A stretch of 64,000 bases of DNA from a virus (IMGVR_UViG_3300027819_000006); one strand, 5' to 3'. Positions 3,319 to 37,878 are shown, counted from the first letter of the stretch. The notes: generated by a model not told the origin, from the letters alone. Numbers and translations: made by a program.

Positions 3319-3912
3319 CTAAAATTGTTTAATATATGTGAATGATGCTCTTCTAAGTACTTTGTCAGCATAATTTGTAGTGCTAAATTTGTTTCCTTTA
3401 TTGTATCTCTCTAATGCTCTTACTAGATTATTGTTTTCTATTTTCAGACACCACTCTAAATGATTGATACCTGCTTTCAGATTTTCTTTTGTATTGTACA
3501 GATCATAACCTCTTACTCCATATATTTCAGCTGTAGCAGGTTTTACTTGCATCAGACCACGAGCATTTTTATTAGATTTACTATTTGTATTGAAATCTGA
3601 TTCTATGCTGATAATGCTGAAAACTATTGCAGGATTGATTTTCTTGTTTGTAGACATAAAATAGATGTATATAGCAAGAGTAGTATCAATTTTAAATTCT
3701 TTGGCATAAAGTTTAGATTTATTTATATGTTGTTCGAGTATTTTTGTTCTATGTTCTATGTCCTGTATTTTAGAGTTCAGTTCTGATATCTTTGTATTAT
3801 TTTTATCGATAATTTCTAATTTCTTTATGTAGCTCAAGCTACACACCATAAAGACAAAAATAATAAATACAGATAGAGAAATCTTTATAGTGAATAGAGC
3901 TTTAAACAGCAT
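3319..3912 (-). CDS. Lytic transglycosylase (SLT domain) with N-terminal membrane anchor
   Basis: IISIESDFN (catalytic E), ARGLMQVKPATA, NLKAGINHL, ALERYNKG. Confidence 0.85.
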   Translation of the reverse strand: MLFKALFTIKISLSVFIIFVFMVCSLSYIKKLEIIDKNNTKISELNSKIQDIEHRTKILEQHINKSKLYAKEFKIDTTLAIYIYFMSTNKKINPAIVFSIISIESDFNTNSKSNKNARGLMQVKPATAEIYGVRGYDLYNTKENLKAGINHLEWCLKIENNNLVRALERYNKGNKFSTTNYADKVLRRASFTYIKQF

Positions 3913-4648
3913 TTTCTAGAGTAATAAAAAAATCTTTTTCTAAATTTAAATTAGAAGCATGACAAATTCCAGAGCCATTAACAATAGCTAAACGTCTAGC
4001 CTTTACATCAGAAATCCATTTAGGATTTGCAGTTTCTGCTCTTTTAATAGCTATTATAGTAAGTTTTTGAACTTCATCAGTTATATTCTGTTTTACAAAA
4101 GTTTGCAATATATCTAATTTCATTGTATCAGAAATTCCACCTTGCTGTGTTCTCAAATCGAAGAACATCGCTGCCGCTCTTTGAGACTTAACCTGGTATA
4201 TTGGCATCATAGCCAAAGCTTTATCAAATACATTTTTAGCAACTTTCAACTGAATTTGTTGCATTTCATTAGTCTGACCTAATTTATAGAATCTATCTTT
4301 CCATTCTGGTAATATTTTATTATTTGTTTGTATTGCAGCTGACCAAGCTACTTGTGATTGTATATCTGTTTTATTCAACATCTCTTTAAAAGTAGCCGAA
4401 CCATTGCCAAAAATATTATCTACTATAGCACTATGACTCTGAATCATTTCTTTTAAAAGTGGTTGTAATGATCCTTGTCCTAAACAAAATTGTAAACATC
4501 CAAATGAAAAACCTTGTCCGTCAAAATTTCCACTCATGCCACTATAACTTTCAAGTGGCATTTTACCTGTCTCTATAAAACTTGTAAGAGCTACACACTT
4601 CTCTAATAATGTAGAGTCTTTATTTAATCTATTCATATAATTCTCCAA
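3902..4648 (-). CDS. Putative endolysin (lysozyme/chitosanase-like fold); likely start 4636
   Basis: FIETG...SGNFDGQGFSFGCLQFCLGQGSLQPLL resembles phage/Firmicute peptidoglycan hydrolases; adjacent to SLT. Confidence 0.6.
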   Translation of the reverse strand: MENYMNRLNKDSTLLEKCVALTSFIETGKMPLESYSGMSGNFDGQGFSFGCLQFCLGQGSLQPLLKEMIQSHSAIVDNIFGNGSATFKEMLNKTDIQSQVAWSAAIQTNNKILPEWKDRFYKLGQTNEMQQIQLKVAKNVFDKALAMMPIYQVKSQRAAAMFFDLRTQQGGISDTMKLDILQTFVKQNITDEVQKLTIIAIKRAETANPKWISDVKARRLAIVNGSGICHASNLNLEKDFFITLENAV

Positions 4649-5477
4649 AGTTTATTAACATCACTTTCCCATATTCTAACTAATTTATAACCATATTTTT
4701 TAGCTAATTCATTTTTTAATTGATCTATTTCTATTTTTATTTTCTGAAATTCGTTTACTGGTCCATTTGGATAATATTCAGGATTACAATGATGATAATT
4801 GCCGTCTACTTCTACTAGTATATTAAAATCTTGTAAATAAAAATCATAATATCTGTTTTCGATCTTGAATTGATTTTCATACCTAATATTACTTTCTATA
4901 TTTTTTCTACTGATTCTTCTACTTTTGAAGTTCTTCTATGCCAATCTTTAGCTACTTTTTCTTTCCACATTTTTTCAGCTATTTCTATACCAAAACTTTT
5001 AGCCCAAAAATCTTTGACTGTTTTGCCATACATCACATTCTTTGAACCTTTTTTATCATCTGACATTTTTAGCAATCTATCATCTGTATTCTTATTTAAC
5101 CCGTCATTCCAGTTTTTACCACCATTTTCATAAAATAAAATCATGCCTGCAGAAGTTTTATTTCCATGTATTTTTACTCTCTCATCTGTTTCTTTTGTAA
5201 GACCTTTATTCCAAGCACCCGATTTGACAAAACCAATTTTTAAAATGCTATTACGACATCCATAACATCTATTATTAGGTCCTTTCACTTCTTTATTACA
5301 GTCATTTTCTATACATTTATATTTATCTAATTTCAGAATTTCAAACCAATATTTTTTAGAATTTACCTTATGTTTTGCTCCAACATGACCAAATAAAGCA
5401 TTATAGCTTTTGAAAACTTTCTTGCAAATAAAACATGATGGTAGTGGATTATTACTTTTATATTCACTTATATTCAA
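4633..5477 (-). pseudogene. Homing-type endonuclease (Zn finger + NUMOD3-like + DUF559), one frameshift near 4896
   Basis: AWNKGLTKETDERV repeats; other frame continues NIRYENQFKIENRYYDFYLQDFNILVEVDGNYHH...VRIWESDVNKLWRII*; stop overlaps lysin ATG. Confidence 0.75.
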
Positions 5478-5497
5478 TCTATTTCTCCTATAATAAA

Positions 5498-5614
5498 AGC
5501 CAAGCAATTGTAATCTACAATAGACTATGAATCTAGTAGTTGCTTGGCTCAAACTATTGGTTAAGTTTATTGTAGATTACAATATAAATATATTTATAAG
5601 AGAAATAAATGCAA
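5498..5614 (-). promoter_or_regulatory. Class II promoter plus interleaved inverted-repeat leader (X-Y-X'-Y')
   Basis: ttgtaatctacaata 5508-5522 / 5568-5582 and agccaagcaa 5498-5507 / 5540-5549; TTGCAT...TATATTTATATT upstream. Confidence 0.75.
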
Positions 5615-5619
5615 ATCAC

Positions 5620-5769
5620 TCACTGCTGGATAGGGCCATACGAAATTCCCATGAGATCGAAATTTCCAGAAATGCAGCTGTAACACTCGGGTGGCATCTT
5701 ACTGTTTTCAATAAATCCAGTGAGACAGACTACCTTTTCTAATAGAGATGAATCTTTAGTTAATTTCAA
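5620..5769 (-). pseudogene. Displaced N-terminal stub of the lysin at 3902-4648
   Basis: TTG start with GGAG RBS; MKLTKDSSLLEKVVCLTGFIENSKMPPECYSCISGNFDLMGISYGPIQQ*; 29/46 identical to the lysin N-terminus by hand alignment. Confidence 0.85.
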
Positions 5770-5815
5770 ATTAACTCTCCATATTAATTGTTCAATATAA
5801 ATATATAATGCTAAT

Positions 5816-6115
5816 CTATAATGTCAGAACAGTATAGTCTCTTAACATTTGTCTGAACGGTGAAACTTTCTTTTTAGGATACAACTCTTCATCAGCTTTC
5901 ACAAAATCTTCATATTGTAGAGTAACAATATTCATATATTCGACATAGTCCATATCTTCTTTATTAACTTTCAGTTGTTTTACTCTTTCATTTTTAATCT
6001 GTACAGCTCTTTCTGCTATTTTTACTCTTTTAGCATAAACTGCGTTATCAAAATGAGCCACAATTGTTGGCATAAAAGCTATCAATATGAAAAGAACAAT
6101 GCAAGCTATGATCAT
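5816..6115 (-). CDS. hypothetical membrane-anchored protein
   Basis: N-terminal hydrophobic segment. Confidence 0.45.
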   Translation of the reverse strand: MIIACIVLFILIAFMPTIVAHFDNAVYAKRVKIAERAVQIKNERVKQLKVNKEDMDYVEYMNIVTLQYEDFVKADEELYPKKKVSPFRQMLRDYTVLTL

Positions 6116-6132
6116 TTCTATACTCCTCTTAT

Positions 6133-6173
6133 GTGAACTAATTCCACCTAAAGGTTGGAATCTTTCTTTTTGA
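6133..6173 (-). mobile_element. 41-bp IS200/IS605-type remnant (fused left/right end hairpin)
   Basis: gtgaactaattccacctaaagg matches the right end at 27599; ggaatctttctttttga matches the left end at 28972-28988. Confidence 0.65.
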
Positions 6174-6177
6174 AATT

Positions 6178-6558
6178 TTATGTAAAATAAGCAATTGCTA
6201 AATAGTTACACAACAAATGAAATGTATTATCTGTAACAATGTAGACTAACCACTTAATAGATTCTATTCTGTCTGATCTCAGACCAGTGATTTCACAAAC
6301 TTTATGTTCATCAATACAATCTACATACATGTTTCTGAATTTGCAGAAAAATTTAGCCAATGAAAATCTATCTAGAATGAAATGACTGCTGAAAATTAGC
6401 AATACAGAAGCATAAGATAGATGTAGAAAATAAGCAAATGGAAGACTATATGTTATACAGTGAGTAATACAGATAAGAGAATCTTTAGACTTGTTTAAAG
6501 CCATTCTCTCAGTTTGCAACAGATAGTCTCCAACTAGATGACAGAGTAATTGTAACAT
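6178..6558 (-). CDS. DUF3307-like membrane protein
   Basis: HLVGDYLLQ...HCITY...HFILDRF...DNTFHL. Confidence 0.65.
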   Translation of the reverse strand: MLQLLCHLVGDYLLQTERMALNKSKDSLICITHCITYSLPFAYFLHLSYASVLLIFSSHFILDRFSLAKFFCKFRNMYVDCIDEHKVCEITGLRSDRIESIKWLVYIVTDNTFHLLCNYLAIAYFT

Positions 6559-6756
6559 TTAATCTCTCTTCTTGATTATTGTTATATCTAGTGCAGTTTT
6601 CAAATAAAACATGACTGCAGGAATTGGTCCAATTACTAGAGAAATCAATATAGTAAAAATTATATCAAACAACGTTAAATCATACTTTTTTGAATCAGAT
6701 ATGATATTGAATGCAATTCCAGATATAGCCCATATAATATAAAGTAAGATTGACAT
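6559..6756 (-). CDS. small membrane protein
   Basis: Two hydrophobic segments; abuts neighbours. Confidence 0.45.
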   Translation of the reverse strand: MSILLYIIWAISGIAFNIISDSKKYDLTLFDIIFTILISLVIGPIPAVMFYLKTALDITIIKKRD

Positions 6757-7640
6757 TTATCCATTCTCCTGTAAATAATCATTTGTGATTTCTACTAATA
6801 GTTTGTCTATGGCTTTATCATTTGGTGAATACGGCAGATCACTAGTTTCATACAGCTCTTCCATTTCTTTATCATATTTCTCAGCAATTTCTATGATCTC
6901 TTCATATGTATATTTACCATTTCTAATAGCTAACAGTTCTTCTCTGTCATGCTCTCTGTAAGTAATAACTTGTTTATCTCTGTATTTCTATACCCATTCT
7001 CATGAGTCTGAAAAGATGAACACAGTGTTTTGTATCTACTTTATATTTTTCCTCTAACTCTGCTCTTTCTTTATTTCTGTTTTGCTTCCAATGCTCATAC
7101 TGTTCATATTTCTTTTTAGCATTCTCATATGCATCTTTATCAAAATAGTATCCGCCATTTTTAGTATATTCTTTTGGAATATCAAACATATTTGTTTCTA
7201 GCTTTTTCAGGTATTTCTCTGGTTCTGGCTTTGGCGGAGGATTATCTATCCAAACTTTATGCCCTTTTACTCTCTTAAGTTGACTATATGCGTAACCTGC
7301 GAAGCGGTGACGTGCTAATTTTGATAAAAATATATCTCTATTGTCAACCAATCTTTGTCCATTTGTCGCAGAATAGAATATTTTTAGGGTGTGAAAATAA
7401 AAGTTCTAAAACATTGGGATTGCAGTCTCTTGCAAGCTGAACAAACTTGTTTATAGAATATATTACAGTATCTGGCTCTTTATATTCTTGTTGCTCAAAT
7501 TTGTGCAGTCCATAGTAGAATTCTCGAGGTGCTATGCAAATCCCACGTATGTCTTCATCTGACAAAGAAGTAGAAATTCCATAGCCTATGCTGCCAGATA
7601 TACATTTGAAAATAGTTCTTTTTTCAATCCAATCAAACAT
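6757..7640 (-). pseudogene. Nucleotidyltransferase (RlaP / Pol-beta superfamily), two frameshifts
   Basis: SGSIGYG...SDEDIRG, NPNVLELLF, FAGYAYSQL, KHCVHLFRLMRMG; shifts near 7347 and 6975; third piece REHDREELLAIRNGKY...ENG*. Confidence 0.75.
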
Positions 7641-7842
7641 TTTTAATCCTTGTCATAAAATCTACAACAGCTACAGAAATATTTTGTAACAATTCTAATA
7701 GTTGTGTTTTAATTTTATCGTTGAAATCTTTAGAATCAAAAATGTAAGCGTTCATTTTCTTTATTTCATCTGGAATAGTTATAAGATTCTCAGACATAGC
7801 TGACTCCTTTGAAAGTTTTTAGCAACCATTTTGTAATGTTTA

Positions 7843-7871
7843 AATATAAACAATTTGCTATGAAAAGTAAA
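7843..7871 (-). promoter_or_regulatory. sigma70-type promoter (class I)
   Basis: TTTACT-N17-TATATT. Confidence 0.7.
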
Positions 7872-7880
7872 CAGATATTT

Positions 7881-8048
7881 TTAAACATCAATTATGGACT
7901 CTAAATAGTAATTTGGTAACATATCTTTGTTCATTTTCAAAATATTGTTAAAACATGAATCTAAAATGTAAGTATTTGCATAATCTGTATCATTTCTTAT
8001 AGATCTACCGCAGCCTTGAAGTATCTCGACGATCGTCTTCCACTGATA
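7881..8048 (-). pseudogene. Duplicate (displaced) C-terminal 55 codons of the DinG-like helicase; predicted TnpB guide source
   Basis: YQWKTIVEILQGCGRSIRNDTDYANTYILDSCFNNILKMNKDMLPNYYLESIIDV*; 36/55 identical to helicase 9364-9531; same length (168 nt). Confidence 0.9.
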
Positions 8049-8052
8049 ATTG

Positions 8053-9237
8053 CTATTTGCAGCTGCTTTCTTTGTCAGAGGGATTATAAACTCCTCTGTG
8101 CAGAATGTTTAAAGCAGCATTATAGTCTGCATCTAAACTTAGACCGCATTCCAGACATAAAAATTTATCTAATTTCCTATTTTCTTTATGTTTGAATCCA
8201 CATGAAGAACATTCCTGACTAGTATAGAAAGAAGAAACTTTCTTCAACTCTATACCCTGTTCTTCACACATCGACTGTAATTTTGAAATAGTTTTTGTAT
8301 AAGACCAATATTGCATTTTATTATTCATTTTCTTAGAATATTTTGATTTGTGTTTTACATTTTTCAAATCTTCTAAAACAACAATGGAGTTATTATAAAA
8401 ATCAATTTTATTGCATATTTCATTGATCTTATTATCTTTAAAAATAAGATATTGCTTATAATTTATAGACCCTCGTTTCATATTTGATAATTTAGTATAC
8501 AATTGTTTCATTTCTACACCATAGACATCATTGTTTGAAGAAACTAGAAGCTTATCATACCCGATGTCAAAAGCAACAGCAGCTTGCTGTTGTTTCAGCA
8601 TTATTTCTTTTTCATAAATAAATGTAATATAAAAATTACCATGTATTTTTCTTAGCAATATCGTATTTTTTCTATTCCAATTTTTGTATTTTAAAGATTG
8701 TTTATGTTGTTTGATAGGTAGATTAATTTTAAAAGCTCTTCTTTTGCTTTTTAAATATGGTAATTTTATGCCTATAAATTCATCAAAATGAGATGAAGAT
8801 TTATCATAACTTATAATTCTATAATCCATATTTATGCATATGTTTTTTATATTGATTCGTATTCTTGAAAATATATGATTTAATCGAAGCTCTGAAAATC
8901 TTTTACTCAGAAATTTTAACTGTCTATTATTTTTAGCGAAATATTTATAGCATTTTTTATATCTACTATATCTTTTATTTCTAGCATATCTAATATTAGA
9001 GCGTATTATTTCAGAAGCTTGTTTATGTATTATCTGTTTCCATCTTGAGTGTATTATTATGTTTGAGCTAACAGATTCAAAAAATTTAGCACTATTTAAG
9101 TCTGGTTTTTGCTTCAATATTTGTTCTATATAAAATATAAGATCTGTTTTATAGTCTTCAAAAACTTGCTCTAGCTGCTCTATCTTATTCTTATTAGAAA
9201 ATTTTAAAATGTGAGTGCTGCTTCTTTTTATAATCAA
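8053..9237 (-). CDS. tnpB: TnpB-family RNA-guided nuclease (RuvC triad apparently intact)
   Basis: AVAFDIG (RuvC-I), VVLEDL (II), SQECSSCG...CLECG Zn ribbon, DADYNAALNI (III). Confidence 0.9.
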   Translation of the reverse strand: MIIKRSSTHILKFSNKNKIEQLEQVFEDYKTDLIFYIEQILKQKPDLNSAKFFESVSSNIIIHSRWKQIIHKQASEIIRSNIRYARNKRYSRYKKCYKYFAKNNRQLKFLSKRFSELRLNHIFSRIRINIKNICINMDYRIISYDKSSSHFDEFIGIKLPYLKSKRRAFKINLPIKQHKQSLKYKNWNRKNTILLRKIHGNFYITFIYEKEIMLKQQQAAVAFDIGYDKLLVSSNNDVYGVEMKQLYTKLSNMKRGSINYKQYLIFKDNKINEICNKIDFYNNSIVVLEDLKNVKHKSKYSKKMNNKMQYWSYTKTISKLQSMCEEQGIELKKVSSFYTSQECSSCGFKHKENRKLDKFLCLECGLSLDADYNAALNILHRGVYNPSDKESSCK

Positions 9238-9257
9238 GTATATATCTCAAATAAAAA

Positions 9258-9361
9258 TGCCAAGTATTGGATCTTAAAAGACTATATGTCTAAAGATACT
9301 TGGCAGTTGATGTCAAGCCTTTTAAGATCCAATAATAAATATGAAATATAGAATAATGCAA
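9258..9361 (-). promoter_or_regulatory. Class II promoter plus X-Y-X'-Y' leader of tnpB
   Basis: ttggatcttaaaag 9267-9280 / 9319-9332; tgccaagta 9258-9266 / 9297-9305. Confidence 0.75.
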
Positions 9362-9363
9362 TA

Positions 9364-10977
9364 CTAAGCATCTATTATGGCATCTAAAAAATATTTTGGA
9401 AATAAATTTTTGTTCATTTTTAGCATATTATCGAAACAGGAGTCTAGAATGTAAGTTTTAGCATAATCATTTTCACTCCTTATAGATCTACCATAAGACT
9501 GTAATATTTCTGCTACAGATTTCCATTGATACCAGTCAGGCATAGTTTTCAATCTTTTCTTTACTTTTGGTGATGCTAAATTTGGAAATGGCACTTTGAC
9601 TATAATCTGAAATCTAGACAAGTCGTCTTTCAAATCTATACCATTTGTCATAGACGGAGATACAATCACTGAAGCATTTGTTGATTCATAATGCTCTTGT
9701 AGCTTGTCTTCTCTGTCATCTATATCGTGAAATATCAATCTATCATTATCAATACTGTGCATAATGATATTAGATATTTCGTAGCTATTAGTATGAATTA
9801 TGCCTTTTTCATTTTTGTGCTTATTCAAAATTGTATTTATAACTTGAGGTAAGTCTTTATAAGTATCATGTTTCTCTCTGTATGACAGCTTACCGATATC
9901 TAAATTGTACACCAATCTATTCTTGACTTCAAATGGAGAATCTAGACTCATATATGCTACATCTTGTTTTAGACCCATGTAATTTTTGAAGAAATTTTTA
10001 TTAAGAATAGTACCAGACATGAATATTACATGATCATAGTTCTTCCATATCATTTCTAGATGATCTTTGCCCCAGACTAATTCTGTTTTCAACACAGTCA
10101 AACCATCTTTATCTTTCTCTTTATAAAATACCCATTTTTCTGTATTATCTTCAGATTCATTTATAAATCTGTTAAATTTACAAATTACTTTATCTAAAAA
10201 TGAATAATCTTTTAATATTTTCAATTTTACATTTTGCACTGCAGCTAACTTGCATTGTTCTTTCAATTCTTTGTATCTAATATTTAAAACTGGTATTAGA
10301 TCATCAGTTACAAATTTAATATAAGTTTCTATTGATCCAATTCTATCAAGCTTAGACAGAAGTCTTGCATTTTTTATACCCCATCTGTTCATAGAACTTC
10401 TAGATATTGTGGAAGAAATGAATTCACAGAACACTTCTTCAAATGAATGTGCTTCATCTACGAATAGAACATTAGAACATCTTTTTTCTATAAATGTTGG
10501 AACATATATTAAATATGATAAGTAGACATGAAAATTTGCTAAACCCACTTTAGCATTTAAAAATTCTTCATATGCAGCTTTAGATGGACAGAAACTGCAT
10601 TCTGTTTTATTGAGCTTGTTTAAATCTTGTCCATCATCACAAGTCAGATTCCATTTTTCGCAGTTATAGTTATTCTTACCTTTGATACTTCTGATGAAAT
10701 CAAAATCAGCAGTATATTGATTTTGTAGAATTTTAGTATTAGTTAGAATATCAAATTTAGCATTTTTATCTATATTCTCAACATACCACTTCATTGCCAT
10801 GACAGCAAAATAACTCTTACCACACCCTACAGAAACGTCTAATAATAAAAATTTCTTCTTAGAATTGATTGACTCTTTGAAGAAATTTAACATCTGGTCT
10901 TGTTGCTGTCTTGGATTATGCTTTAGAGTGATCATAGAAAATAAATGAATGCACCTATTATAGGAATTTTGCTCCAT
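9364..10977 (-). CDS. DinG/Rad3-like SF2 helicase
   Basis: VGCGKS Walker A, FVDEAH, MSGT, IIHTNSY, SPSMTNGIDL, QSYGRSIR motif VI. Confidence 0.9.
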   Translation of the reverse strand: MEQNSYNRCIHLFSMITLKHNPRQQQDQMLNFFKESINSKKKFLLLDVSVGCGKSYFAVMAMKWYVENIDKNAKFDILTNTKILQNQYTADFDFIRSIKGKNNYNCEKWNLTCDDGQDLNKLNKTECSFCPSKAAYEEFLNAKVGLANFHVYLSYLIYVPTFIEKRCSNVLFVDEAHSFEEVFCEFISSTISRSSMNRWGIKNARLLSKLDRIGSIETYIKFVTDDLIPVLNIRYKELKEQCKLAAVQNVKLKILKDYSFLDKVICKFNRFINESEDNTEKWVFYKEKDKDGLTVLKTELVWGKDHLEMIWKNYDHVIFMSGTILNKNFFKNYMGLKQDVAYMSLDSPFEVKNRLVYNLDIGKLSYREKHDTYKDLPQVINTILNKHKNEKGIIHTNSYEISNIIMHSIDNDRLIFHDIDDREDKLQEHYESTNASVIVSPSMTNGIDLKDDLSRFQIIVKVPFPNLASPKVKKRLKTMPDWYQWKSVAEILQSYGRSIRSENDYAKTYILDSCFDNMLKMNKNLFPKYFLDAIIDA

Positions 10978-11291
10978 TTATCAACAAATCTATCTTTCCA
11001 ATCTATTTCATTAGCTCGAATATAAATTCTATTTTCATCTTTTTCATCATACTCTATGTGATACAAATCAGTTTTAAAATATGCTTTACTTTCGCATAAC
11101 TTTATAATATGTTTTGCATCATCTACACATTCAATAGATATTTTTATATACTTTTTATCTCGCACTTTATCAAGCTCACGTAATCTTGAAAAATCAAAAT
11201 AGACGACTTTTTTTTCAGCATATTTTGCATTTTTCAATTGATTCAATTTATCTATGATTGAATCTACTATATCTTCTATACTTTCTGACAT
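10932..11291 (-). CDS. hypothetical protein
   Basis: 119-aa ORF. Confidence 0.45.
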   Translation of the reverse strand: MSESIEDIVDSIIDKLNQLKNAKYAEKKVVYFDFSRLRELDKVRDKKYIKISIECVDDAKHIIKLCESKAYFKTDLYHIEYDEKDENRIYIRANEIDWKDRFVDKWSKIPIIGAFIYFL

Positions 11292-11948: not shown

Positions 11949-11961
11949 TTCTATCTCCCTT

Positions 11962-14320: not shown

Positions 14321-14321
14321 C

Positions 14322-14448: not shown

Positions 14449-14461
14449 TTTAAGGTTGTAA

Positions 14462-26861: not shown

Positions 26862-27028
26862 TAAAAATTTTAGTCTGTATCATGTATTACGTACACTCCT
26901 AAAACCCAAGCAACTATGGATAAGAAAAGCCAACTATCAGAATGTTGAACATACAGAATCAATTTGCACAATACTGGCCATCCTAACATCCATAGAACTA
27001 GAGCAATCTTTTTCATTTTATCTCCGTT

Positions 27029-31544: not shown

Positions 31545-31762
31545 TCCTAAATTGATTGTTTGTTTTTGTTGTTGTTGTTTTGCTTCTATTTTTGAACCTA
31601 ACCACTTCTACTTCTTGTTACATTTGCTCCTGACTATTTTTAAAATTATTATGCTGCTGTTAATCACCTCTTTTCTGTTTGATAAAAATGAAAAGCTCAC
31701 TATGGTTTGTGCAAATTATAGCAACCATTAATGAGCTTATTGTTGTATCTGTTTTTAAAACT

Positions 31763-31984
31763 TTATCTGTTCAGTTTAAACTTTGGTTTAACAAAAATTC
31801 TTTTAATCATTCTGAACAGAATTTGTATCTGCATTAGAAACCATAGTATAGCTATTAGAATTAGGACTGCAACAAAAAATAGAATTATACATCCAATAAA
31901 TATAAGTGGAATTGCTACAGTTAATCCAACATATGCTGCTACTGCATAGATTAACCATTTTAGAGGAAGAATCAGTTCTGACAT
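31763..31984 (-). CDS. small membrane protein
   Basis: Long hydrophobic stretch. Confidence 0.45.
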   Translation of the reverse strand: MSELILPLKWLIYAVAAYVGLTVAIPLIFIGCIILFFVAVLILIAILWFLMQIQILFRMIKRIFVKPKFKLNR

Positions 31985-32006
31985 TTTTGATTCTTTCTAT
32001 TTTATT

Positions 32007-32093
32007 TGGCGGAAGAGTGAATAGTCGAAATCCCGGCTTTCACCGCCATATCAGTATTCAAAGCTGATGGCTCTCCACAGAGCGTACTCTTCC
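32007..32093 (-). tRNA. tRNA-Ser(TGA) with tRNA-Sec-like / allo-tRNA 8/4 architecture
   Basis: 8-bp acceptor GGAAGAGT/ACTCTTCC, 5-bp D-stem with 4-nt loop, loop TTTGAAT, long variable arm, 4-bp T-stem, G73-CCA. Confidence 0.75.
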
Positions 32094-32095
32094 TT

Positions 32096-32350
32096 TTAAG
32101 GATTTAGTTTATTAAAATTTCCAATATATATAATTTTATCATTATAGCAAGATACTCTAAAAACATTTCCATTAACATTGTCTACTATAGCAATATTTGC
32201 GCCATAATTAATATTAACCAATGAATATCGTTGTGCATACATTATTTGAGGACTCACTTCTGTATGAGTTTTTATAGAGAACACTAATAATAGAAATACT
32301 ATAATAGATGCTATTACTAAAATTGTTTTTTTGCTAATGTTGATTATCAT
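32096..32350 (-). CDS. hypothetical exported protein
   Basis: Signal-like N-terminus. Confidence 0.45.
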   Translation of the reverse strand: MIINISKKTILVIASIIVFLLLVFSIKTHTEVSPQIMYAQRYSLVNINYGANIAIVDNVNGNVFRVSCYNDKIIYIGNFNKLNP

Positions 32351-32366
32351 TTTAATCCTTTCATAT

Positions 32367-32397
32367 TTGGCTGCCCTAGATCGATTTAAACGATCAA
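32367..32397 (-). pseudogene. tRNA 3'-half remnant
   Basis: GATCG-TTTAAAT-CGATC-TAGGGCA-G-CCA with no 5' half. Confidence 0.5.
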
Positions 32398-32405
32398 TAA
32401 AGTGA

Positions 32406-32478
32406 TTACCAGTGAAAGAGTTGAACTCTCATGACAAGGTTCAAAGCCTTGTATCTTAAACCATTAGATGAACTGGCA
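32406..32478 (-). tRNA. tRNA-Gln(TTG), CCA not encoded
   Basis: CAAGG-CTTTGAA-CCTTG; acceptor TGCCAGT/ACTGGTA. Confidence 0.8.
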
Positions 32479-32539
32479 TTTTAGATTTTAAAAACATATT
32501 TTCTGACTTCATCGACAAAAGACAAAGAGACTGTATTAT

Positions 32540-32618
32540 TTTGCTCAAGAACTTGGAGTTACACCAATATTTTCTCATTAGATAAATGAGCGCTTTGATC
32601 AATTTGAATTACAAGAGC
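32540..32618 (-). pseudogene. Degenerate tRNA-like sequence
   Basis: Acceptor GCTCTTG/CTTGAGC with two mismatches; CTCAT/ATGAG anticodon stem. Confidence 0.35.
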
Positions 32619-32627
32619 TTTTAATAT

Positions 32628-32855
32628 TTACCAACTTTCTAAATTGATTTCATGATATATTCCACATTCACAGTATAGTATTTCTACATATATACTGCCA
32701 TGAGAACCACATAACTCACATTCTCCAGAATTAGATCTTATGAATATTCTATCTGTTGTCATTTCTTTATTTAATTTAGGACAGATGTATTTTAAACAAA
32801 GAAGTTTAGCATCTTTATATTTCTTTATTCTTTTCATCTGTTTCATATGTTTCAT
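32628..32855 (-). CDS. small Cys-rich protein
   Basis: CELCGSH, CECGIYH. Confidence 0.45.
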   Translation of the reverse strand: MKHMKQMKRIKKYKDAKLLCLKYICPKLNKEMTTDRIFIRSNSGECELCGSHGSIYVEILYCECGIYHEINLESW

Positions 32856-32873
32856 ATAGCTTTACTTTCAATT

Positions 32874-32951
32874 TGGAGGGATGAAGCGGATTTGAACCGC
32901 AATCTGCTTGTTTCACATACAAGCGCTTTACTCGCTTAAGCTATCATCCCC
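32874..32951 (-). tRNA. tRNA-His(GTG)
   Basis: CTTGT-ATGTGAA-ACAAG, G-1, CCA. Confidence 0.85.
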
Positions 32952-32958
32952 AATTGTT

Positions 32959-33034
32959 TGGAGACTCCAGTTGGAATTTCACCAACACAAAGCAATTTTG
33001 CAGATTGTTCTCTTGAATATTAGAGCATGGAGTC
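32959..33034 (-). tRNA. tRNA-Cys(GCA)
   Basis: Loop CTGCAAA; acceptor GACTCCA/TGGAGTC; T-CCA. Confidence 0.8.
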
Positions 33035-33045
33035 TTATTTTATAT

Positions 33046-33137
33046 TGGTCGGTAAGGAGAGATTTGAACTCTAAAGATGTTTTTATCAACATCTGACAGT
33101 TTAGCAAACTGTTTGGTTCACTATACCAGATCTTCCA
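33046..33137 (-). tRNA. tRNA-Ser(GCT), 5' acceptor strand imperfect
   Basis: ACAGT-TTGCTAA-ACTGT, long variable arm, CCA. Confidence 0.6.
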
Positions 33138-33145
33138 TATAGTTT

Positions 33146-33244
33146 AATCTACACCAGAAATGCAGATAAAATATCTTGTGCACAGATAGATTAACATCAT
33201 TTCTTATGCTCTCAACCTGGATATCAGGAGTTGCAGTGTAGATT
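33146..33244 (-). ncRNA. candidate tRNA-sized structured RNA
   Basis: Closing stem AATCTACAC/GTGTAGATT with internal hairpins; no tRNA consensus. Confidence 0.35.
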
Positions 33245-33251
33245 TTTATGT

Positions 33252-33326
33252 TGGTCGAGCAAGAAAGAGTTGAACTTTCATCGACTGGTTCCCAAAACCA
33301 GGGCTATTACATTAAGCTATTGCTCG
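33252..33326 (-). tRNA. tRNA-Pro(TGG)
   Basis: CTGGT-TTTGGGA-ACCAG, CCA. Confidence 0.85.
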
Positions 33327-33337
33327 ATATTTTAATT

Positions 33338-33412
33338 TGGTGACCCGTGAGATAGTTGAAATCTCCTCTAGAGTTTGAAAGACTCTGATACTTTCCGCTG
33401 TACGAACGGGTC
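33338..33412 (-). tRNA. tRNA-Glu(TTC)
   Basis: AGAGT-CTTTCAA-ACTCT, CCA. Confidence 0.85.
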
Positions 33413-33423
33413 ATTTTATATTT

Positions 33424-33501
33424 TGGTGGCTCTAACAGGATTCCAACCTGTGGCTTCCTCTTTAGAAGAGAGGCACTCTATGCGGGCTGAGTTATAGAGC
33501 C
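33424..33501 (-). tRNA. tRNA-Arg(TCT)
   Basis: CCTCT-CTTCTAA-AGAGG, CCA. Confidence 0.85.
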
Positions 33502-33701
33502 ATTTAAATTTTATATCGTCATATTAGTATTTTTCTAATATTGTATTCTTCTTCAGATTGCAACCTCTTTAAAAAATCATTTTATCTGGACAAGAGTGAC
33601 GTACCAGACAAGCATCATTGAGCCACCATCAGAGGAACTTTCGTTACTCCTCCACCGCTACTTTTTTCACAAGAAAGTAGTAAAACTCTTTCATATTTAA
33701 G

Positions 33702-33785
33702 TGGCCCTAGAAGGATTTGAACCTTCACCCAGATTAACTGGACTAGTTCTTAAAACTAGCGTGGCTGCCGTTACACCATAGAGCC
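33702..33785 (-). tRNA. tRNA-Leu(TAA), CCA not encoded
   Basis: CTAGT-TTTAAGA-ACTAG, long variable arm. Confidence 0.85.
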
Positions 33786-33811
33786 ATTACTTATCCATCT
33801 TCTTACAAATA

Positions 33812-34033
33812 TCAATTCAGCTTATCAAACAGAAGTGCATAAAAAACTATAATTGCCATGACTACACAAAATACTGCATCAAATTTACCTTTATCTAATG
33901 TTCTCAGATGTTCCATTGGAGCATAACAGATAAACATTAATAGTAAGAGTCCATAGATTGCTCGAAACATTTTAGTAACCTTTCTTATAGACTGTTTATT
34001 TTGTATAGTATAATATAAACAATCTATAAACAA
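33812..34033 (-). CDS. small membrane protein (likely start MFRAIYG)
   Basis: Hydrophobic ORF after promoter. Confidence 0.4.
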   Translation of the reverse strand: MFIDCLYYTIQNKQSIRKVTKMFRAIYGLLLLMFICYAPMEHLRTLDKGKFDAVFCVVMAIIVFYALLFDKLN

Positions 34034-34040
34034 AAGTAAA
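34012..34040 (-). promoter_or_regulatory. sigma70-type promoter (class I)
   Basis: TTTACT-N17-TATATT. Confidence 0.7.
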
Positions 34041-34057
34041 GGAGTATTTTAAAATTA

Positions 34058-34149
34058 TTAGACTTGCCACAATCAACCAAAGCTGATTGTTCGCCACGTA
34101 ATTTGTCTAACTCTGAATCTGCAAGAGTGCAGATTCAGCAGTAGTCTAA
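34058..34149 (-). ncRNA. candidate tRNA-sized structured RNA
   Basis: Closing TTAGACT/AGTCTAA; hairpins CTGAATCTGCA/TGCAGATTCAG and ACAATCAGC/GTTGATTGT. Confidence 0.45.
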
Positions 34150-34160
34150 TTTTTATTAGT

Positions 34161-34183
34161 TGGTAGCCTGGGAGCGATTTGCA
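34161..34183 (-). pseudogene. 3' fragment of a split tRNA
   Basis: TGCAAAT-CGCTC-CCAGGCT-A-CCA; partner 5' fragment at 35333-35357. Confidence 0.6.
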
Positions 34184-34215
34184 GGCTATGTAATAAATTT
34201 ATTATATGGACTTTG

Positions 34216-34289
34216 TACGGGATGAGGGAGTCAAACCCTCCATCTTGGCTTTATAAGAACCAGGCATTCATCAGGTATGCTAATCCCGT
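34216..34289 (-). tRNA. tRNA-Ile(TAT), CCA not encoded, within a 20-bp perfect inverted repeat
   Basis: TGGTT-CTTATAA-AGCCA; repeat 34204-34223 / 34283-34302. Confidence 0.75.
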
Positions 34290-34339
34290 ACAAAGTCCAT
34301 ATTTCTATTTAAAATTATTAGCTTAAAAGTAAAAATACA

Positions 34340-35227
34340 TTATGCAAGAGCTAATTGTTTCATGAATATGTCGAATTCAACTTCTACAAATAACTCGTTA
34401 TGTTTGCCCATGTCTTTTATAATATAAACTTTATAGCCAGCTCTTTCTATTTCTTTTATTTTTATCTTTTCTCTACTCTGTACTTGTTCGACTGAATGTT
34501 TATCTGCTACTTTCTTATAATGCCAAATACCATTCCATAAAATTGCAGTTTTAATATCTTCTATTATTACATCTGCATCCCAACCATTAAAAATAGCTTC
34601 ATTATGCAGTACGTTTTTAAATTTTCTGCAACACAGTTCATAAAAATATATTTCATTCTTGCTTCTTCTTCTTAATCTCTGAGAATTAGCAGATTTTTTA
34701 CCAGCTTCTCTTGCTTTAGCTAAATATTCAGCAGAAGATCTTGTACATGTTTCACAGCAATATTTTTTATTTGAATCTATTCTTTTCAAAAACATTTTTT
34801 GACAATTGATGCTATTACATGTTACTTCTATTCTTTCTATTTTATGAATATTTACTATTCTGCCGCTTACATAACCTGATTTAATAGTATTTGATACTTT
34901 TTTTCGAGTTTCTTCACTGTGTGTTCGCGCATGCGAACATTTATCAGAACAGCATTTATGAGATAGAGCATTATCTCTAATTCTTATTTGAGTTTCGAAC
35001 CATTTGTTACATCTATCACATTTGTGAAAAACTTCAACCCATAAAATCTTTTTAGCTTTCGACTTTATACTTTTAGATAATTTCTGTAATGATTCTTCTG
35101 AAAACTTTCTTCCATAAAAGGGATTATTAGACCCTTTTAAATTTATTCCAGTGTTGCAGAATCTTTTGTGAGATGTTACTGCTCTTTTAGATTTAAAATA
35201 TCTATCGCATGTATCACATTTTATCAT
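34340..35227 (-). CDS. Homing-type endonuclease (Zn finger, NUMOD3, Vsr/DUF559-like)
   Basis: NPFYGRKFSEE, HSEETRKKVS, RSKNEIYF...WDADV...LWNGIWH. Confidence 0.75.
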   Translation of the reverse strand: MIKCDTCDRYFKSKRAVTSHKRFCNTGINLKGSNNPFYGRKFSEESLQKLSKSIKSKAKKILWVEVFHKCDRCNKWFETQIRIRDNALSHKCCSDKCSHARTHSEETRKKVSNTIKSGYVSGRIVNIHKIERIEVTCNSINCQKMFLKRIDSNKKYCCETCTRSSAEYLAKAREAGKKSANSQRLRRRSKNEIYFYELCCRKFKNVLHNEAIFNGWDADVIIEDIKTAILWNGIWHYKKVADKHSVEQVQSREKIKIKEIERAGYKVYIIKDMGKHNELFVEVEFDIFMKQLALA

Positions 35228-35332
35228 TGAACTATCTCCTCAGTGTTTATACTATAATAAATATAAACATCAAAGAGAAAAGTTCAACTACATATTACCC
35301 CAATCAATACTGTTTATTGAAGCAATATTTCT

Positions 35333-35357
35333 ACCGTCCTGGATCGGTCTGCAGGCT
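35333..35357 (-). pseudogene. 5' fragment of a split tRNA
   Basis: AGCCTGC acceptor strand plus D-arm ACCG/CGGT. Confidence 0.5.
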
Positions 35358-35366
35358 ATTTAAAAT

Positions 35367-35834
35367 TTACTTCTTCACAAGATTTGGATCAACAATTTCC
35401 GGATTGATAATTGTAACCTTGATGTCATCCATTTCGTACTTGTACTTTCCATAAGTATTTTCAAGATATGGTCTGATTGCATCTGGTGTGAAGCAGAAAA
35501 CTGATCCATCAATATCGACCAGAACTGGCATCTTCCTTCTACTAACTTTCAATCCGATAATCTTTGCATTCTTGCTATCATAAGTGAATGGCTTATTAAT
35601 CCATTCAGGATTGAGTTGATACCACTGAGCTTCTTCAATATAGTCTCTATAGAACTGCGTAATCACAACTCCATCTTCTGCAACTGCTGAACATTCAAGC
35701 TTCATACTGAAAGATGAATCATTAAACTTGATACAGCCCTGACTGAACTTGACATTATACTTTGTTTCAACAACTTTAAGAGCATTTTCAATTTCTCTAC
35801 GGATATTCTTGAGGTTGCTCTTATCAAAAACCAT
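35367..35834 (-). CDS. hypothetical protein
   Basis: 155-aa ORF with GGAG RBS. Confidence 0.55.
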   Translation of the reverse strand: MVFDKSNLKNIRREIENALKVVETKYNVKFSQGCIKFNDSSFSMKLECSAVAEDGVVITQFYRDYIEEAQWYQLNPEWINKPFTYDSKNAKIIGLKVSRRKMPVLVDIDGSVFCFTPDAIRPYLENTYGKYKYEMDDIKVTIINPEIVDPNLVKK

Positions 35835-35886
35835 TTTGATTTAATCTCCGTTTGAGAAGTTGTTGTATAACCATTTTGTACGGTTA

Positions 35887-35911
35887 AATATAAACTGAAT
35901 GCAAATGTAAA
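35887..35911 (-). promoter_or_regulatory. degenerate class I promoter (13-nt spacer)
   Basis: TTTACA...TATATT with ACAAAATGGTT downstream, as in other copies. Confidence 0.45.
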
Positions 35912-35917
35912 CAATTT

Positions 35918-36376
35918 TTATTCAATTGTCAAATTATTATCTAACCATTCTTCACACTGCTCTTGAGACTTTATATTACCAAGATTGTTCCTAAAATAGA
36001 ATAGTTTCACGTTCAAAATATTTTTAAATGCTTTAATTTTCAATTTAGATATAGTGACGTGTCTTCCTCTTCTAGAGCCCTTTATTTCTATCCATAGATT
36101 ACAATCTGGTATGAAAAAATCAGGAACATATTGCATCCCATCATCTGAAGTTCCATTGCTGATAGTGAATTTTTCAGCATTTTTAATCCAATAGATGTTT
36201 CTACTATTCAGTATATCTGCAAAAGCTAATTCATACAACCCATTCATTTCAAACTGTTCACCTTTTATATTTGCAAATTGTCTATTCTTTGTAAGCTCTT
36301 TTTGAGATTCATGGTTCAAATCAATCATGATATCTCCATTAATTGGTAACCATTTTATATGATTAAATATAAACAA
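35918..36376 (-). CDS. PD-(D/E)xK nuclease-like protein
   Basis: YELAFA...YVPDFFIPDCNLWIEIKG. Confidence 0.6.
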   Translation of the reverse strand: MFIFNHIKWLPINGDIMIDLNHESQKELTKNRQFANIKGEQFEMNGLYELAFADILNSRNIYWIKNAEKFTISNGTSDDGMQYVPDFFIPDCNLWIEIKGSRRGRHVTISKLKIKAFKNILNVKLFYFRNNLGNIKSQEQCEEWLDNNLTIE

Positions 36377-36394
36377 TTTAACCTAAAAGTAAAC
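36366..36394 (-). promoter_or_regulatory. sigma70-type promoter (class I)
   Basis: TTTACT-N17-TATATT. Confidence 0.65.
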
Positions 36395-36410
36395 AACTGT
36401 TTTATTTTGT

Positions 36411-36485
36411 AGCATCTACTCAGATTTAAACTGAGACCCTTTGCTTGGAAGGCAAACATGCTAAATCGTTAAACACTATAGATAC
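36411..36485 (-). tRNA. tRNA-Gly(TCC), CCA not encoded
   Basis: TTTGC-CTTCCAA-GCAAA. Confidence 0.8.
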
Positions 36486-36503
36486 TTATTTTTATATATA
36501 GAG

Positions 36504-36586
36504 TGCCAGAGGAGAGATTTGAACTCTCAGTAGGATTTCTCCAGATTGCTTCTAAAGCAATTTCGTATGCATTCCGACACTCTGGC
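36504..36586 (-). tRNA. tRNA-Leu(TAG), CCA not encoded
   Basis: ATTGC-TTTAGAA-GCAAT, long variable arm. Confidence 0.8.
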
Positions 36587-36836
36587 TCTTTTGTAATCTT
36601 TCTATTCTATCAAGTTCTTTTTGCATTTTTAAAATTTCTAATTCTGTATATATTAACAAAATTCTTAAAGAATCTAATTTTGTATTTGCAAATAAAAATG
36701 GGTTATTAAGATTTTTCATTATTGTTTTTACTAAAGCAGTATCTACAGGAACTGTTGCAGATTTTGTAGATACTGCAAACAATAAAATACAAGCTAAAAT
36801 TAATGCCATAACTTTCATTTTATCTCATTTTAAAAT

Positions 36837-36919
36837 TGGTAGCCCTACTCAGATTTGAACTGAGACGGCATAAATGCCACTGCTTTTGAAGCAGTTGAGT
36901 AGACATTCCTCTATAGGGC
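36837..36919 (-). tRNA. tRNA-Leu(CAA)
   Basis: ACTGC-TTCAAAA-GCAGT, CCA. Confidence 0.85.
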
Positions 36920-36945
36920 TATTGTTATTCTTCATCATTTATTAG

Positions 36946-37029
36946 TAGCTCTGGAGGGATTTCAACCCTCACTCCATTTAAGGAACATATTCTTGAAATA
37001 TGCGAGTCTAGCAATTTCTCCACAGAGCT
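36946..37029 (-). tRNA. tRNA-Leu(CAA), second copy, CCA not encoded
   Basis: CATAT-TTCAAGA-ATATG. Confidence 0.8.
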
Positions 37030-37036
37030 ATATTTT

Positions 37037-37110
37037 TGGTGGACTGAGATGGAATCGCACATCTACCACTAGTTTTTCAAGCTAGCACTCTTCTCCTGAG
37101 TTATCAGTCC
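37037..37110 (-). tRNA. tRNA-Phe(GAA)
   Basis: Loop TTGAAAA; acceptor GGACTGA/TCAGTCC; CCA. Confidence 0.8.
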
Positions 37111-37118
37111 CTATTTAT

Positions 37119-37146
37119 TGGTGCACTTGATAGGATTCGAACATAT
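37119..37146 (-). pseudogene. 3' fragment of a split tRNA
   Basis: GTTCGAATCCTAT-CAAGTGC-A-CCA; complementary 5' GCACTTG at 37872-37878. Confidence 0.7.
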
Positions 37147-37159
37147 ATGAGATTTTTAT

Positions 37160-37237
37160 TGGTGGGTCTGGCAGGAATTGCACCCGCATTTTTCTCCTTA
37201 AAAGGGAGCTACAAAAGCTAATTTTTGTTACAGACCC
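37160..37237 (-). tRNA. tRNA-Lys(TTT) with a 6-bp D-stem
   Basis: Loop CTTTTAA; ACAAAA/TTTTGT D-stem; 5' end overlaps the last codons of the upstream nuclease ORF. Confidence 0.75.
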
Positions 37238-37821
37238 ATTAAAATCTTTAATTCATTTATGCATTTTAAAACATTTTCTTTAACATCTTGAGCTTCAAAT
37301 CTTATAACTTTCCAACCATTTTCTATACTAAATTTATCTCTTCTTTCATCTATTAATTTAACTTTTGGTAAATTATGTGTAGACCCATCAATTTCAACAT
37401 CAATTTTTAAATCTATAAAAGCAAAATCATAACAATATATACTATGCTGATAATTGTATATCCATCCTTCAATGTTTGAATATTCTAAAGCATTTTTGAA
37501 TATTTTTTCTGGATAACTCATTTTAGAGCAATGATTTAGTTTGTATGGAACTTTTTCTGGATGTTCCATTAAATATTTTATTCGATGTAAAGATAATTTG
37601 TTTCTAGTTTCTTCAGTGTGATGTCTGCCTGTCCAATATATTCTTGCTGATTCTGATCTTTTCTTCCTCAATATTTCACTTTTATCATTATCAAGACAAA
37701 ACATTACATGAGAAGTCATTTTTTGTGGTATATCAAAACAAAATTCTTTTTTACAATGTTTGCATACATATATTTTCATTATGATCCTCCAATTATATAA
37801 TAAATATAACTGTCGAATCAT
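37228..37821 (-). CDS. Homing-type endonuclease (NUMOD3 + DUF559)
   Basis: WTGRHHTEETRNKLS, SYPEKIF...YDFAF..IDVEIDGSTH...GWKVIRF. Confidence 0.8.
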   Translation of the reverse strand: MIRQLYLLYNWRIIMKIYVCKHCKKEFCFDIPQKMTSHVMFCLDNDKSEILRKKRSESARIYWTGRHHTEETRNKLSLHRIKYLMEHPEKVPYKLNHCSKMSYPEKIFKNALEYSNIEGWIYNYQHSIYCYDFAFIDLKIDVEIDGSTHNLPKVKLIDERRDKFSIENGWKVIRFEAQDVKENVLKCINELKILMGL

Positions 37822-37842
37822 AAAAGACTTATGTAAAAAATA

Positions 37843-37878
37843 TTTAATAAGCTAGTTCCAGTCATGGTGTACAAGTGC
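37843..37878 (-). pseudogene. 5' fragment of a split tRNA (possibly Lys)
   Basis: GCACTTG-TA-...-CTAG-CTTATTAA. Confidence 0.55.

Follow-up and report, generated by a model that had tools for sequence, protein, structure and literature searches.

Nuclease cassettes between functional and fossil gene ends in an uncultured groundwater jumbo phage

Within a 64,000-nt stretch of IMGVR_UViG_3300027819_000006 (hereafter the window), which belongs to an uncultured groundwater jumbo phage, four protein genes, encoding a lysozyme-like lysin, a DinG-like helicase, PurA, and a 253-aa protein, each bear a nuclease cassette at one end. Beyond each cassette the same gene end occurs again as a diverged copy, of 49 codons (lysin), 54 codons (helicase), ~16 codons (PurA), and 8 codons (253-aa protein), and exactly one cassette separates every such stub from its gene. 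Two extra cases were found, one at a topoisomerase IB gene just past the window and one in which the stub is a single ATG codon. We consider it reasonably probable that the cassettes are free-standing homing-endonuclease units following a single design peculiar to this phage, and that they came in by one-sided homing between diverged phages. A first-pass annotation of the window had described nuclease cassettes flanked by two versions of part of a neighboring gene, read as a shared strategy of insertion and replacement; the observation is partly confirmed, holding for the four protein genes while the second of two supposed split tRNAs proved to be misread, and the interpretation is partly supported. 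The features at the four genes are as follows (coordinates count from the first nucleotide of the window, and pairs written from high to low follow the direction of reading on the minus strand).

3902-4636, minus strand: functional lysozyme-like lysin, with a replacement N-terminus (the patch) at ~4487-4636.
4633-5619, minus strand: nuclease cassette N1, with a promoter motif (5580-5591), an interleaved-hairpin leader, a zinc-finger/NUMOD3 open reading frame (ORF; 5552-4896), and a frameshifted DUF559 PD-(D/E)xK part (4935-4636).
5620-5769, minus strand: fossil lysin N-terminus, a 49-codon ORF with a TTG start and its own ribosome-binding site (RBS) and promoter, ending ...GPIQ within FDGQGxSFGxLQW.
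7881-8048, minus strand: fossil helicase C-terminus, 54 codons with its own stop at the homologous position.
8053-9363, minus strand: TnpB cassette, with a promoter and A-B-A'-B' leader (9238-9363) and the gene for a 394-aa TnpB with a Zn ribbon (9237-8053).
9364-10977, minus strand: DinG/Rad3-like helicase, whose C-terminal 55 codons (9364-9531) are the functional version and begin just ahead of motif VI.
12218-13333, minus strand: PurA (adenylosuccinate synthetase) with its functional N-terminus.
13330-14461, minus strand: nuclease cassette N3, with a promoter, a hairpin leader, a zinc-finger/NUMOD3 ORF (14320-13439), and an ExK part (13467-13333).
14462-14508, minus strand: fossil PurA N-terminus, MYVDCVYEG / EAGDEAK with one frameshift, ending inside the P-loop GDExK.
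17861-19146, minus strand: nuclease cassette N4, with a leader and three frameshifted pieces (19034-18366, 18387-18157, and 18184-17861).
19147-19908, minus strand: 253-aa protein, ending NKSQQLVF before its stop.

In a self-comparison of every stop-to-stop frame of the window against all others, residues 8-54 of the lysin match 5769-5620 (62% identity, E 7e-14) and residues 483-536 of the helicase match 8048-7884 (67% identity, E 1e-23), in agreement with the duplicated lysin N-terminus and helicase C-terminus of the first-pass annotation. The duplicated PurA N-terminus stands as well, with one frameshift in the stub; the block is unique to two places, the pattern V-D-x-V ... G-D-E-x-K occurring on both strands of the window only at the PurA start and at 14502-14462, and in 0 of 200 Markov randomisations. 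At the 253-aa protein, which had been called a vWA protein, the duplicated 8-aa tail (NKSQQLVF and NKSQQLTF, each before a stop) is real and the label lacks Pfam support, no vWA match to this protein being found. The last piece of N4 continues in frame into the fossil tail (17864-17887), whose stop holds the RBS of the gene that follows. Comparison of 46,056 pairs of ORF tails gave two with 7/8 identities; this is one, and the other presumably joins two nuclease C-terminal tails. Three independent assemblies (ENA, Logan, and JGI) are 100% identical to the window over 7034-20935, a span that takes in the helicase/TnpB, PurA, and vWA-like cassettes and leaves the lysin and tRNA cassettes outside; the stubs and nuclease frameshifts in that span are therefore not assembly errors.

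The two versions of each gene end are far apart in DNA. Nei-Gojobori counts give proportions of synonymous (pS) and nonsynonymous (pN) differences of 0.73-0.94 and 0.15-0.26, respectively (helicase, 0.73 and 0.17; lysin, 0.94 and 0.26), pS being formally >1 for the 8-codon tail of the 253-aa protein, where five of the seven identical residues use a different codon. Where residues are identical the same codon is found 46 times, against 53.8 expected from independent draws at the codon usage of the genome, so that the DNA likeness of the ends stems from protein constraint alone. The stubs of 49, 54, and 83 codons (the last at topoisomerase IB) remain open frames. Because synonymous sites are saturated and the protein is conserved, we regard the two versions as old alleles rather than local duplications; this fits alleles that would have evolved for long as working genes in different genomes and come to lie side by side fairly recently. 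A claim of deliberate recoding, in the sense of excess synonymous divergence, was dropped, only the lysin falling below expectation (z -2.6; total z -1.7).

As the first-pass annotation had it, junctions of the longer stubs lie at or next to conserved motifs, four of the five ending inside catalytic motifs that are invariant in the family. The lysin stub terminates at the Q (LQ|W) of FDGQG(I/L)SFGxLQW, which is nearly invariant in the family alignment (relatives of this lysin bear peptidoglycan-binding domains), and at the junction the present lysin reads GFSFGCLQF against G(I/L)SFGxLQW in the family, with three departures including the near-invariant W. The helicase stub begins exactly at the Y of P(D/E)W|YxWK, ten residues ahead of motif VI (QxxGRxxR), and both helicase ends carry the derived features YQWK, DYA, and LKMNK...IID-stop, which none of the 38 relatives aligned (of 119 retrieved) shows; the donor would therefore be a close member of the same clade. 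At the topoisomerase IB gene (locus L008, past the high end of the window), an 83-codon ORF matches residues 5-73 (51% identity, E 2e-18), a NUMOD3 nuclease stands between stub and gene, and the stub stops at TGI|R, ahead of the Arg of the RVGNE motif, which we take to be a catalytic residue of type IB enzymes.

For the lysin, a cassette-free relative is available. The closest lysin homologue (65% identity) belongs to another groundwater phage (contigs L013-L015), which is syntenic (RlaP, lysin, SLT, orf143, and a DUF559 nuclease) with 58-79% protein identity. It has a single uninterrupted lysin, with the N1 cassette absent from its front, and the nuclease gene is thus polymorphic for presence and absence at the same locus, at the lysin site alone. 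By blastn, L013 1963-2146 is collinear with 5804-5621, the stub locus, and then with the lysin from 4486 on, i.e. with stub plus remainder. The RBS and TTG start of the relative's lysin match the context of the stub, unlike the ATG supplied by the nuclease. Collinearity and start context together point to the lysin stub as the native 5' end rather than a decayed paralog, and the earlier suggestion that the old segment persists as a fossil is supported, the cassettes sitting between functional and fossil gene ends. Nucleotide identities of the relative (0.60 to the patch, 0.64 to the stub, and 0.70 to the whole 2.2-kb tract) do not discriminate between the two versions. The remainder of the lysin is 0.64-0.79 identical to the relative, against 0.70 overall, similar to the flanking native genes.

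The cassettes share a common design. The endonucleases are free-standing and carry a domain set of the homing-endonuclease type, combining a PD-(D/E)xK domain of one of two types (DUF559/Vsr-like or endonuclease-I/resolvase-like) with NUMOD3, C2H2, or zinc-ribbon parts. Their description as unrelated nucleases is thus right for the two catalytic domain types and wrong for the N-terminal zinc-finger/NUMOD3 DNA-binding regions, which are homologous across endonucleases (e.g. lysin versus PurA cassettes, E 4e-12). About half of the nucleases are disrupted by small indels, as expected of homing endonucleases that decay after fixation; in N3, for example, PDF is parted from ExK by a 2-nt deletion. 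Programmed frameshifting was considered and rejected, as the five sites inspected share no slippery site (the 2-nt deletion lies in a T run and another site in an A run). The promoter motif ATATTTATATTG is common to all cassettes (16 matches in the window versus 3.6 expected), and a leader of two interleaved inverted repeats, A-B-A'-B', precedes every nuclease gene, endonuclease or TnpB. B and B' hold a conserved GCCAAG...CTTGGC followed by a T run, and A and A' vary between copies in a compensatory manner; the leader could be a terminator/antiterminator switch or a pseudoknot. Promoter plus leader lie at 9238-9363, 5553-5619, 14321-14440, 19035-19146, 22338-22430, and 58856-58990, and at L008:4880-5000 and L013:1764-1900. 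The left ends of the cassettes fall into two recurring types and lie within a few bases of a stub or stop codon; in a shuffle test, likeness of left ends was significant only for the N1/topoisomerase pair and the L008/L013 TnpB pair. At the right end, the nuclease stop overlaps the next ATG (ATGA), as previously noted, at the lysin, PurA, a pncA-like gene, and a radical SAM gene, the stop of both N1 and N3 being TGA, and in two nucleases, N1 being one, the terminal TGGAGA serves as the RBS, also as claimed. A wider proposal, which we make tentatively and hold to be doubtful, is that these parts form a modular chassis (defined left end, phage promoter, interleaved-hairpin leader, and a right end supplying the RBS and ATG of the following gene) within which protein-guided PD-(D/E)xK endonucleases and RNA-guided TnpB are exchanged, and which invades conserved catalytic motifs of essential genes and imports a recoded gene end, TnpB acting as an inter-phage homing or competition nuclease and not as a transposon helper.

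Cleavage and its site, like immunity of the imported end and the route of repair, are inferred from sequence, and the homing reading would run as follows. In a donor phage the cassette would lie flush with a gene boundary, overlapping the next ATG or directly behind a stop codon. During co-infection, the nuclease would cut the cassette-free allele of a diverged phage within DNA encoding an invariant protein motif; one broken end would invade the donor at a conserved stretch, repair would copy the donor gene end together with the cassette, and the other end would be joined non-homologously. The recipient's own gene end would then persist as a stub bounded by the break, and the imported end would keep the gene functional and, differing at nearly every synonymous site, is proposed not to be a target. 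Many nucleases would later decay by frameshift after fixation.

Several points weigh against this reading. The cut site would be read indirectly, from stub boundaries in invariant motifs, and there is an ascertainment bias, stubs being recognisable only where the junction lies in the same gene. The cassette-free relative bears on the lysin only and is ~30% diverged in DNA; across its tract, 8.7% of patch-length (139-nt) windows are as low in identity as 0.60, so that an imported tract is not delimitable. Contigs of four groundwater/sediment runs compared with 3300-23299 held the same phage, and no cassette-free form was seen among them, their joints arising solely from paralogous nuclease domains. 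The analysis does not support a role of the tRNAs carried by two cassettes (described below) as replacements of disrupted ones. Finally, a 91-codon ORF at 62274-62549, 40% identical to the N-terminus of a glycosyltransferase two genes upstream (~63436-64404), directly precedes a nuclease cassette (62083-61325) with no complete glycosyltransferase after it.

Among other explanations, the donor might have given the complete gene, perhaps with neighbors, along with the cassette, through a far homologous crossover and an illegitimate join inside the recipient copy, in which case there would be no discrete patch and the junction need not mark the cut site. We regard such whole-gene or multi-gene replacement as rather unlikely. 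It draws support from the extent of foreign DNA at the lysin, which is not resolvable, from survivorship, which would favor junctions within a gene that is supplied intact, and from the difficulty of a homology-driven crossover inside a gene at saturated synonymous divergence (dS); random joins, however, would not be expected to place four of five longer stubs in the most conserved motif of their family, and the lysin remainder is as near to the relative as the flanking native genes are. An origin of the stubs by local tandem duplication, or by independent decay of paralogs, without any link to nuclease mobility is very improbable: nothing specific speaks for it beyond the frequency of short duplications in AT-rich phage DNA, and it is at odds with saturated synonymous sites in open frames encoding conserved protein, with the single nuclease cassette between every stub and its gene, and with the native promoter, RBS, and TTG context that the lysin stub shares with the relative.

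A further alternative concerns the helicase, where TnpB itself might have made and might maintain the arrangement, a guide RNA from DNA past the right end directing cleavage of cassette-free helicase alleles and repair copying the recoded C-terminus together with tnpB, as RNA-guided non-restorative homing. In its favor, the protein matches Pfam Cas12f1-like_TNB (6.7e-20), residues 285-383 align with Cas12f/TnpB structures, including LED, the CxxC pairs of the Zn ribbon, and DADYNAA, and the RuvC residues of its D-E-D triad (FDIG, VLEDL, and DADYNAA) look intact on a reading by eye, the Asp of FDIG lying outside the structure alignment. The conserved right end stops at ...CTCTGACAAAGAAA (~8067) in this copy, in a 67% identical paralog (L008), and in a 66% identical copy (L013); all three end ...CTCTG(A/T)CAAAGAAA and then diverge, as a fixed 3' scaffold boundary with a locus-specific flank. 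Here that flank is the following.

8049-8066, minus strand: 18 nt at the TnpB guide position, GCAGCTGCAAATAGCAAT, unique in the window.

TnpB cleaves ~15-21 nt from its transposon-associated motif (TAM), and the helicase stub starts 18 nt past the conserved right end, close to that distance. Other TnpB copies abut 3' ends of conserved genes, and homing of this kind has been discussed (PMC13565253). Against it, translation of the 18 nt in the helicase frame gives AAANSN in place of the P(D/E)W that is invariant in the family, so that the sequence at the guide position is not helicase and the expected guide, matching the vacant helicase target, is not there. The left end of the cassette resembles by eye those of the lysin and topoisomerase cassettes (TGCATT(T)ATT(T)CT), a likeness to N1 that failed the shuffle test at p<=0.02, and is unlike those of the other two TnpB copies (67% and 66%), which have a different upstream element in common. 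Those copies lack a stub, and in the relative phage the same type of TnpB lies elsewhere, in reverse orientation inside a DUF3307 gene that it merely truncates. We therefore consider it quite unlikely that TnpB is the agent at the helicase. Because the guide-position sequence is not helicase, the other copies are stubless, and the left end looks by eye like that of the endonuclease cassettes, this TnpB is probably a later occupant and not the importer of the helicase end; on the same promoter/leader chassis, it would most likely have replaced an earlier endonuclease by cassette swap or inserted into the scar. The claim that TnpB has joined the niche of the endonucleases is correspondingly weakened. 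Folding of the RNA of the TnpB 3' region was uninformative (z -2.1). The hairpins upstream of tnpB are the leader common to the endonuclease cassettes.

Several side observations were made on further TnpB genes. A third copy (28882-27614) seems to split a small gene into a 41-codon N-part (29117-28992, ending ...MTY) and a 47-codon C-part (27583-27460); both parts adjoin ACTTAT, which may be the target or TAM of this TnpB, and there is no replacement copy. A plus-strand TnpB (24059-25319) ends 4 nt from the stop of a convergent IMP dehydrogenase (IMPDH)/GMP-reductase-like gene, so that its guide position is antisense to the 3' end of that gene, and in another phage, of 217 kb (L009-L012), a TnpB is placed likewise against a Rad50/SbcC-like gene.

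The case of the one-codon stub is as follows.

21408-22436, minus strand: one-codon stub case, in which TAG comes immediately after a native RBS and ATG (22436-22431).

An intact 309-aa NUMOD3/DUF559 nuclease (22337-21408) follows, and its end, ...TGGAGACTAATATGA, re-creates an RBS and ATG for the downstream gene 21411-20620.

Two cassettes in the tRNA array had been read as tRNAs split into halves with a complete tRNA inside.

37119-37878, minus strand: tRNA cassette 1, with a 5' fragment (37878-37843), a DUF559 nuclease (37821-37228), tRNA-Lys(UUU) (37237-37160), and a 3' fragment (37146-37119).
34161-35369, minus strand: hairpin-flanked cassette, with hairpin copies (35369-35336 and 34200-34161), a 295-aa NUMOD3 nuclease (35227-34340), and tRNA-Ile(UAU) (34289-34215).

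For the first, the description is plausible. The fragment 37146-37119 is an unmistakable tRNA 3' end (T-arm with a TTCGAAT loop, CAAGTGC, A, and CCA), the acceptor strands at 37878 and 37119 are complementary at 7/7 positions, and the T-arm with ACCA is canonical. When the two fragments are joined, ARAGORN calls a tRNA at 90% of its threshold and none at 95%, with poor D and anticodon arms; none of 7,326 control joins gave a call. The pair 37878/37119 may thus plausibly be a disrupted tRNA gene. The second pair had been misread: 35357 and 34183 mark two versions of one 25-28-nt hairpin, collinear in alignment (ATAGCCTGCAnAnCGnTCC(C)AGG), rather than tRNA halves, and brute-force ARAGORN joins gave none at >=90%. 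Separately, tRNA-Ile(UAU) in this cassette (34161-34322) is enclosed by an 11-bp extension of the acceptor stem and is seemingly inserted between AAATAG and CCTGCA of the duplicated hairpin, with ATAG on both sides; the unit appears to resemble a small mobile tRNA module. A group I intron or splicing reading of the cassettes was rejected, Rfam giving no intron match over 31500-38500; every gene has a complete end of its own, so splicing is not needed.

With regard to known systems, layouts of this kind are established for fungal mitochondria, and other phages have offered glimpses of them (PMC3630166 and PMC10055350). In fungal mitochondria, mobile ORFs (mORFs) create gene hybrids, as in atp6 of Allomyces (Paquin et al. 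1994, cited in PMC3630166) and atp6, atp9, cox2, and nad3 of Glomus (Beaudet et al. 2013, PMC3630166). In the mORF-type layout an endonuclease ORF is flanked by alternative versions of a gene terminus, the nearer of which continues the reading frame of the gene core; this layout is found at the lysin, helicase, PurA, 253-aa protein, and topoisomerase IB genes. As with mORFs, there is a gene core, an inserted foreign terminus, an endonuclease ORF, and a remnant of the native terminus, the termini are low in DNA identity with the protein conserved, and the endonuclease shares, in some instances, the reading frame of the native end (here at the 253-aa protein). In contrast to mORFs, the host is a jumbo phage, the enzymes are of PD-(D/E)xK/NUMOD3 instead of LAGLIDADG/GIY-YIG type, replacement affects N-termini and not C-termini alone, the cassettes come with a promoter and leader of their own and are translationally coupled to the following gene (ATGA), and tnpB occupies one site. 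The free-standing endonucleases SegF, SegB, and Mob of T4-like phages carry out intronless homing with localized marker exclusion (PMC13565253), and likewise lie between conserved genes with a neighboring conserved target, co-conversion of flanks, and, for SegB, tRNA clusters. In T4, replacement is clean through two homologous crossovers, whereas here the recipient segment stays as a stub, which implies one non-homologous junction and genomes much more diverged than in the T4 cases. In the homing endonuclease gene (HEG) islands of ICP1 and other phages, small genes adjacent to HEGs are fragments of essential cargo genes, suggested to be remnants usable as recombination substrates (Barth, Dunham & Seed 2023, PMC10055350). 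Gene fragments beside nucleases are common to both; those islands involve T5orf172 and HNH families, with no systematic link between fragment boundaries and catalytic motifs and no pairing of a working with a fossil end at saturated synonymous divergence. With guide-RNA-bearing TnpB of the IS200/IS605 family (Karvelis et al. 2021, PMC8612924; PMC10690162), the phage copies share the TnpB architecture, the conserved 3' scaffold boundary with a variable flank (in three copies), and conserved-gene neighbors. They differ in that no TnpA was found among the ORFs scanned and no insertion sequence (IS) ends were recognised, no dedicated search for such ends having been made, that the phage promoter and leader of the endonucleases drive tnpB, and that the guide-position flank mismatches the adjoining helicase.

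What is notable here is the number of instances in one genome, the replacement of both kinds of terminus, motif-precise boundaries, and a TnpB on the same chassis. If the homing reading holds, these cassettes would extend a mitochondrial mobile-endonuclease mechanism to phage, with at least five or six independent instances at gene starts and ends, and selfish nucleases would be turning essential genes into mosaics of phages whose divergence is too great for ordinary recombination. Stub boundaries would be natural footprints of likely cleavage sites in the DNA of catalytic motifs and offer concrete substrates for the biochemistry of an uncharacterised NUMOD3/PD-(D/E)xK endonuclease family, and TnpB genes on the same regulatory chassis become candidates for a role in homing or competition between phages. 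In annotation, it is worth checking whether small ORFs beside phage nucleases are gene-end fossils.

The source contig, of ~272 kb, derives from groundwater metagenomes. The window is 30% G+C, has nearly all its genes on the minus strand, includes a tRNA array, and resembles huge phages in gene content (DinG-like helicase, PurA, IMP dehydrogenase/GMP reductase-like, RecA, kinase, PP2C, and nicotinate-type phosphoribosyltransferase). Megablast of the region against phage records gave no close relative. The nearest matches of the helicase are "uncultured phage" records of 634-735 kb (38-40% identity); no helicase relative exceeded 49% identity and none was syntenic, and a scan of JGI metagenomes with the helicase stub gave a single 44% relative only.

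Among the minor observations, a stand-alone DUF559 nuclease (2425-2862; L013:3701-4189) is the best conserved gene between this phage and the relative, with 79% aa identity and up to 86% nt identity in one 139-nt window versus 70% overall, which suggests recent exchange or strong constraint. Several tRNA-like genes and fragments are missed by default ARAGORN.

32007-32093, 33046-33142, 37037-37110, 37897-38007, 32367-32395, and 34062-34135: tRNA-like genes and fragments missed by default ARAGORN.

They comprise Ser(UGA), Ser(GCU), whose acceptor is mismatched, Phe(GAA), and Asn(GUU), whose anticodon loop bears a 35-nt insert. An orphan tRNA 3' half stands directly behind tRNA-Gln, and a further fragment corresponds by homology to tRNA-Ser(UGA) over its 5' two-thirds. 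The orphan half (32395-32367) has no exact 5' partner and joins weakly only with a pseudo-tRNA at 32618. Lastly, a second repeated promoter-like element (tgtttac...ttgtttatatt) precedes unrelated genes and is kept at 77-87% identity in the relative phage.

7830-7886, 26815-26877, 38037-38080, 46059-46101, and 51448-51496, and L013:4240-4295 in the relative phage: second promoter-like element.

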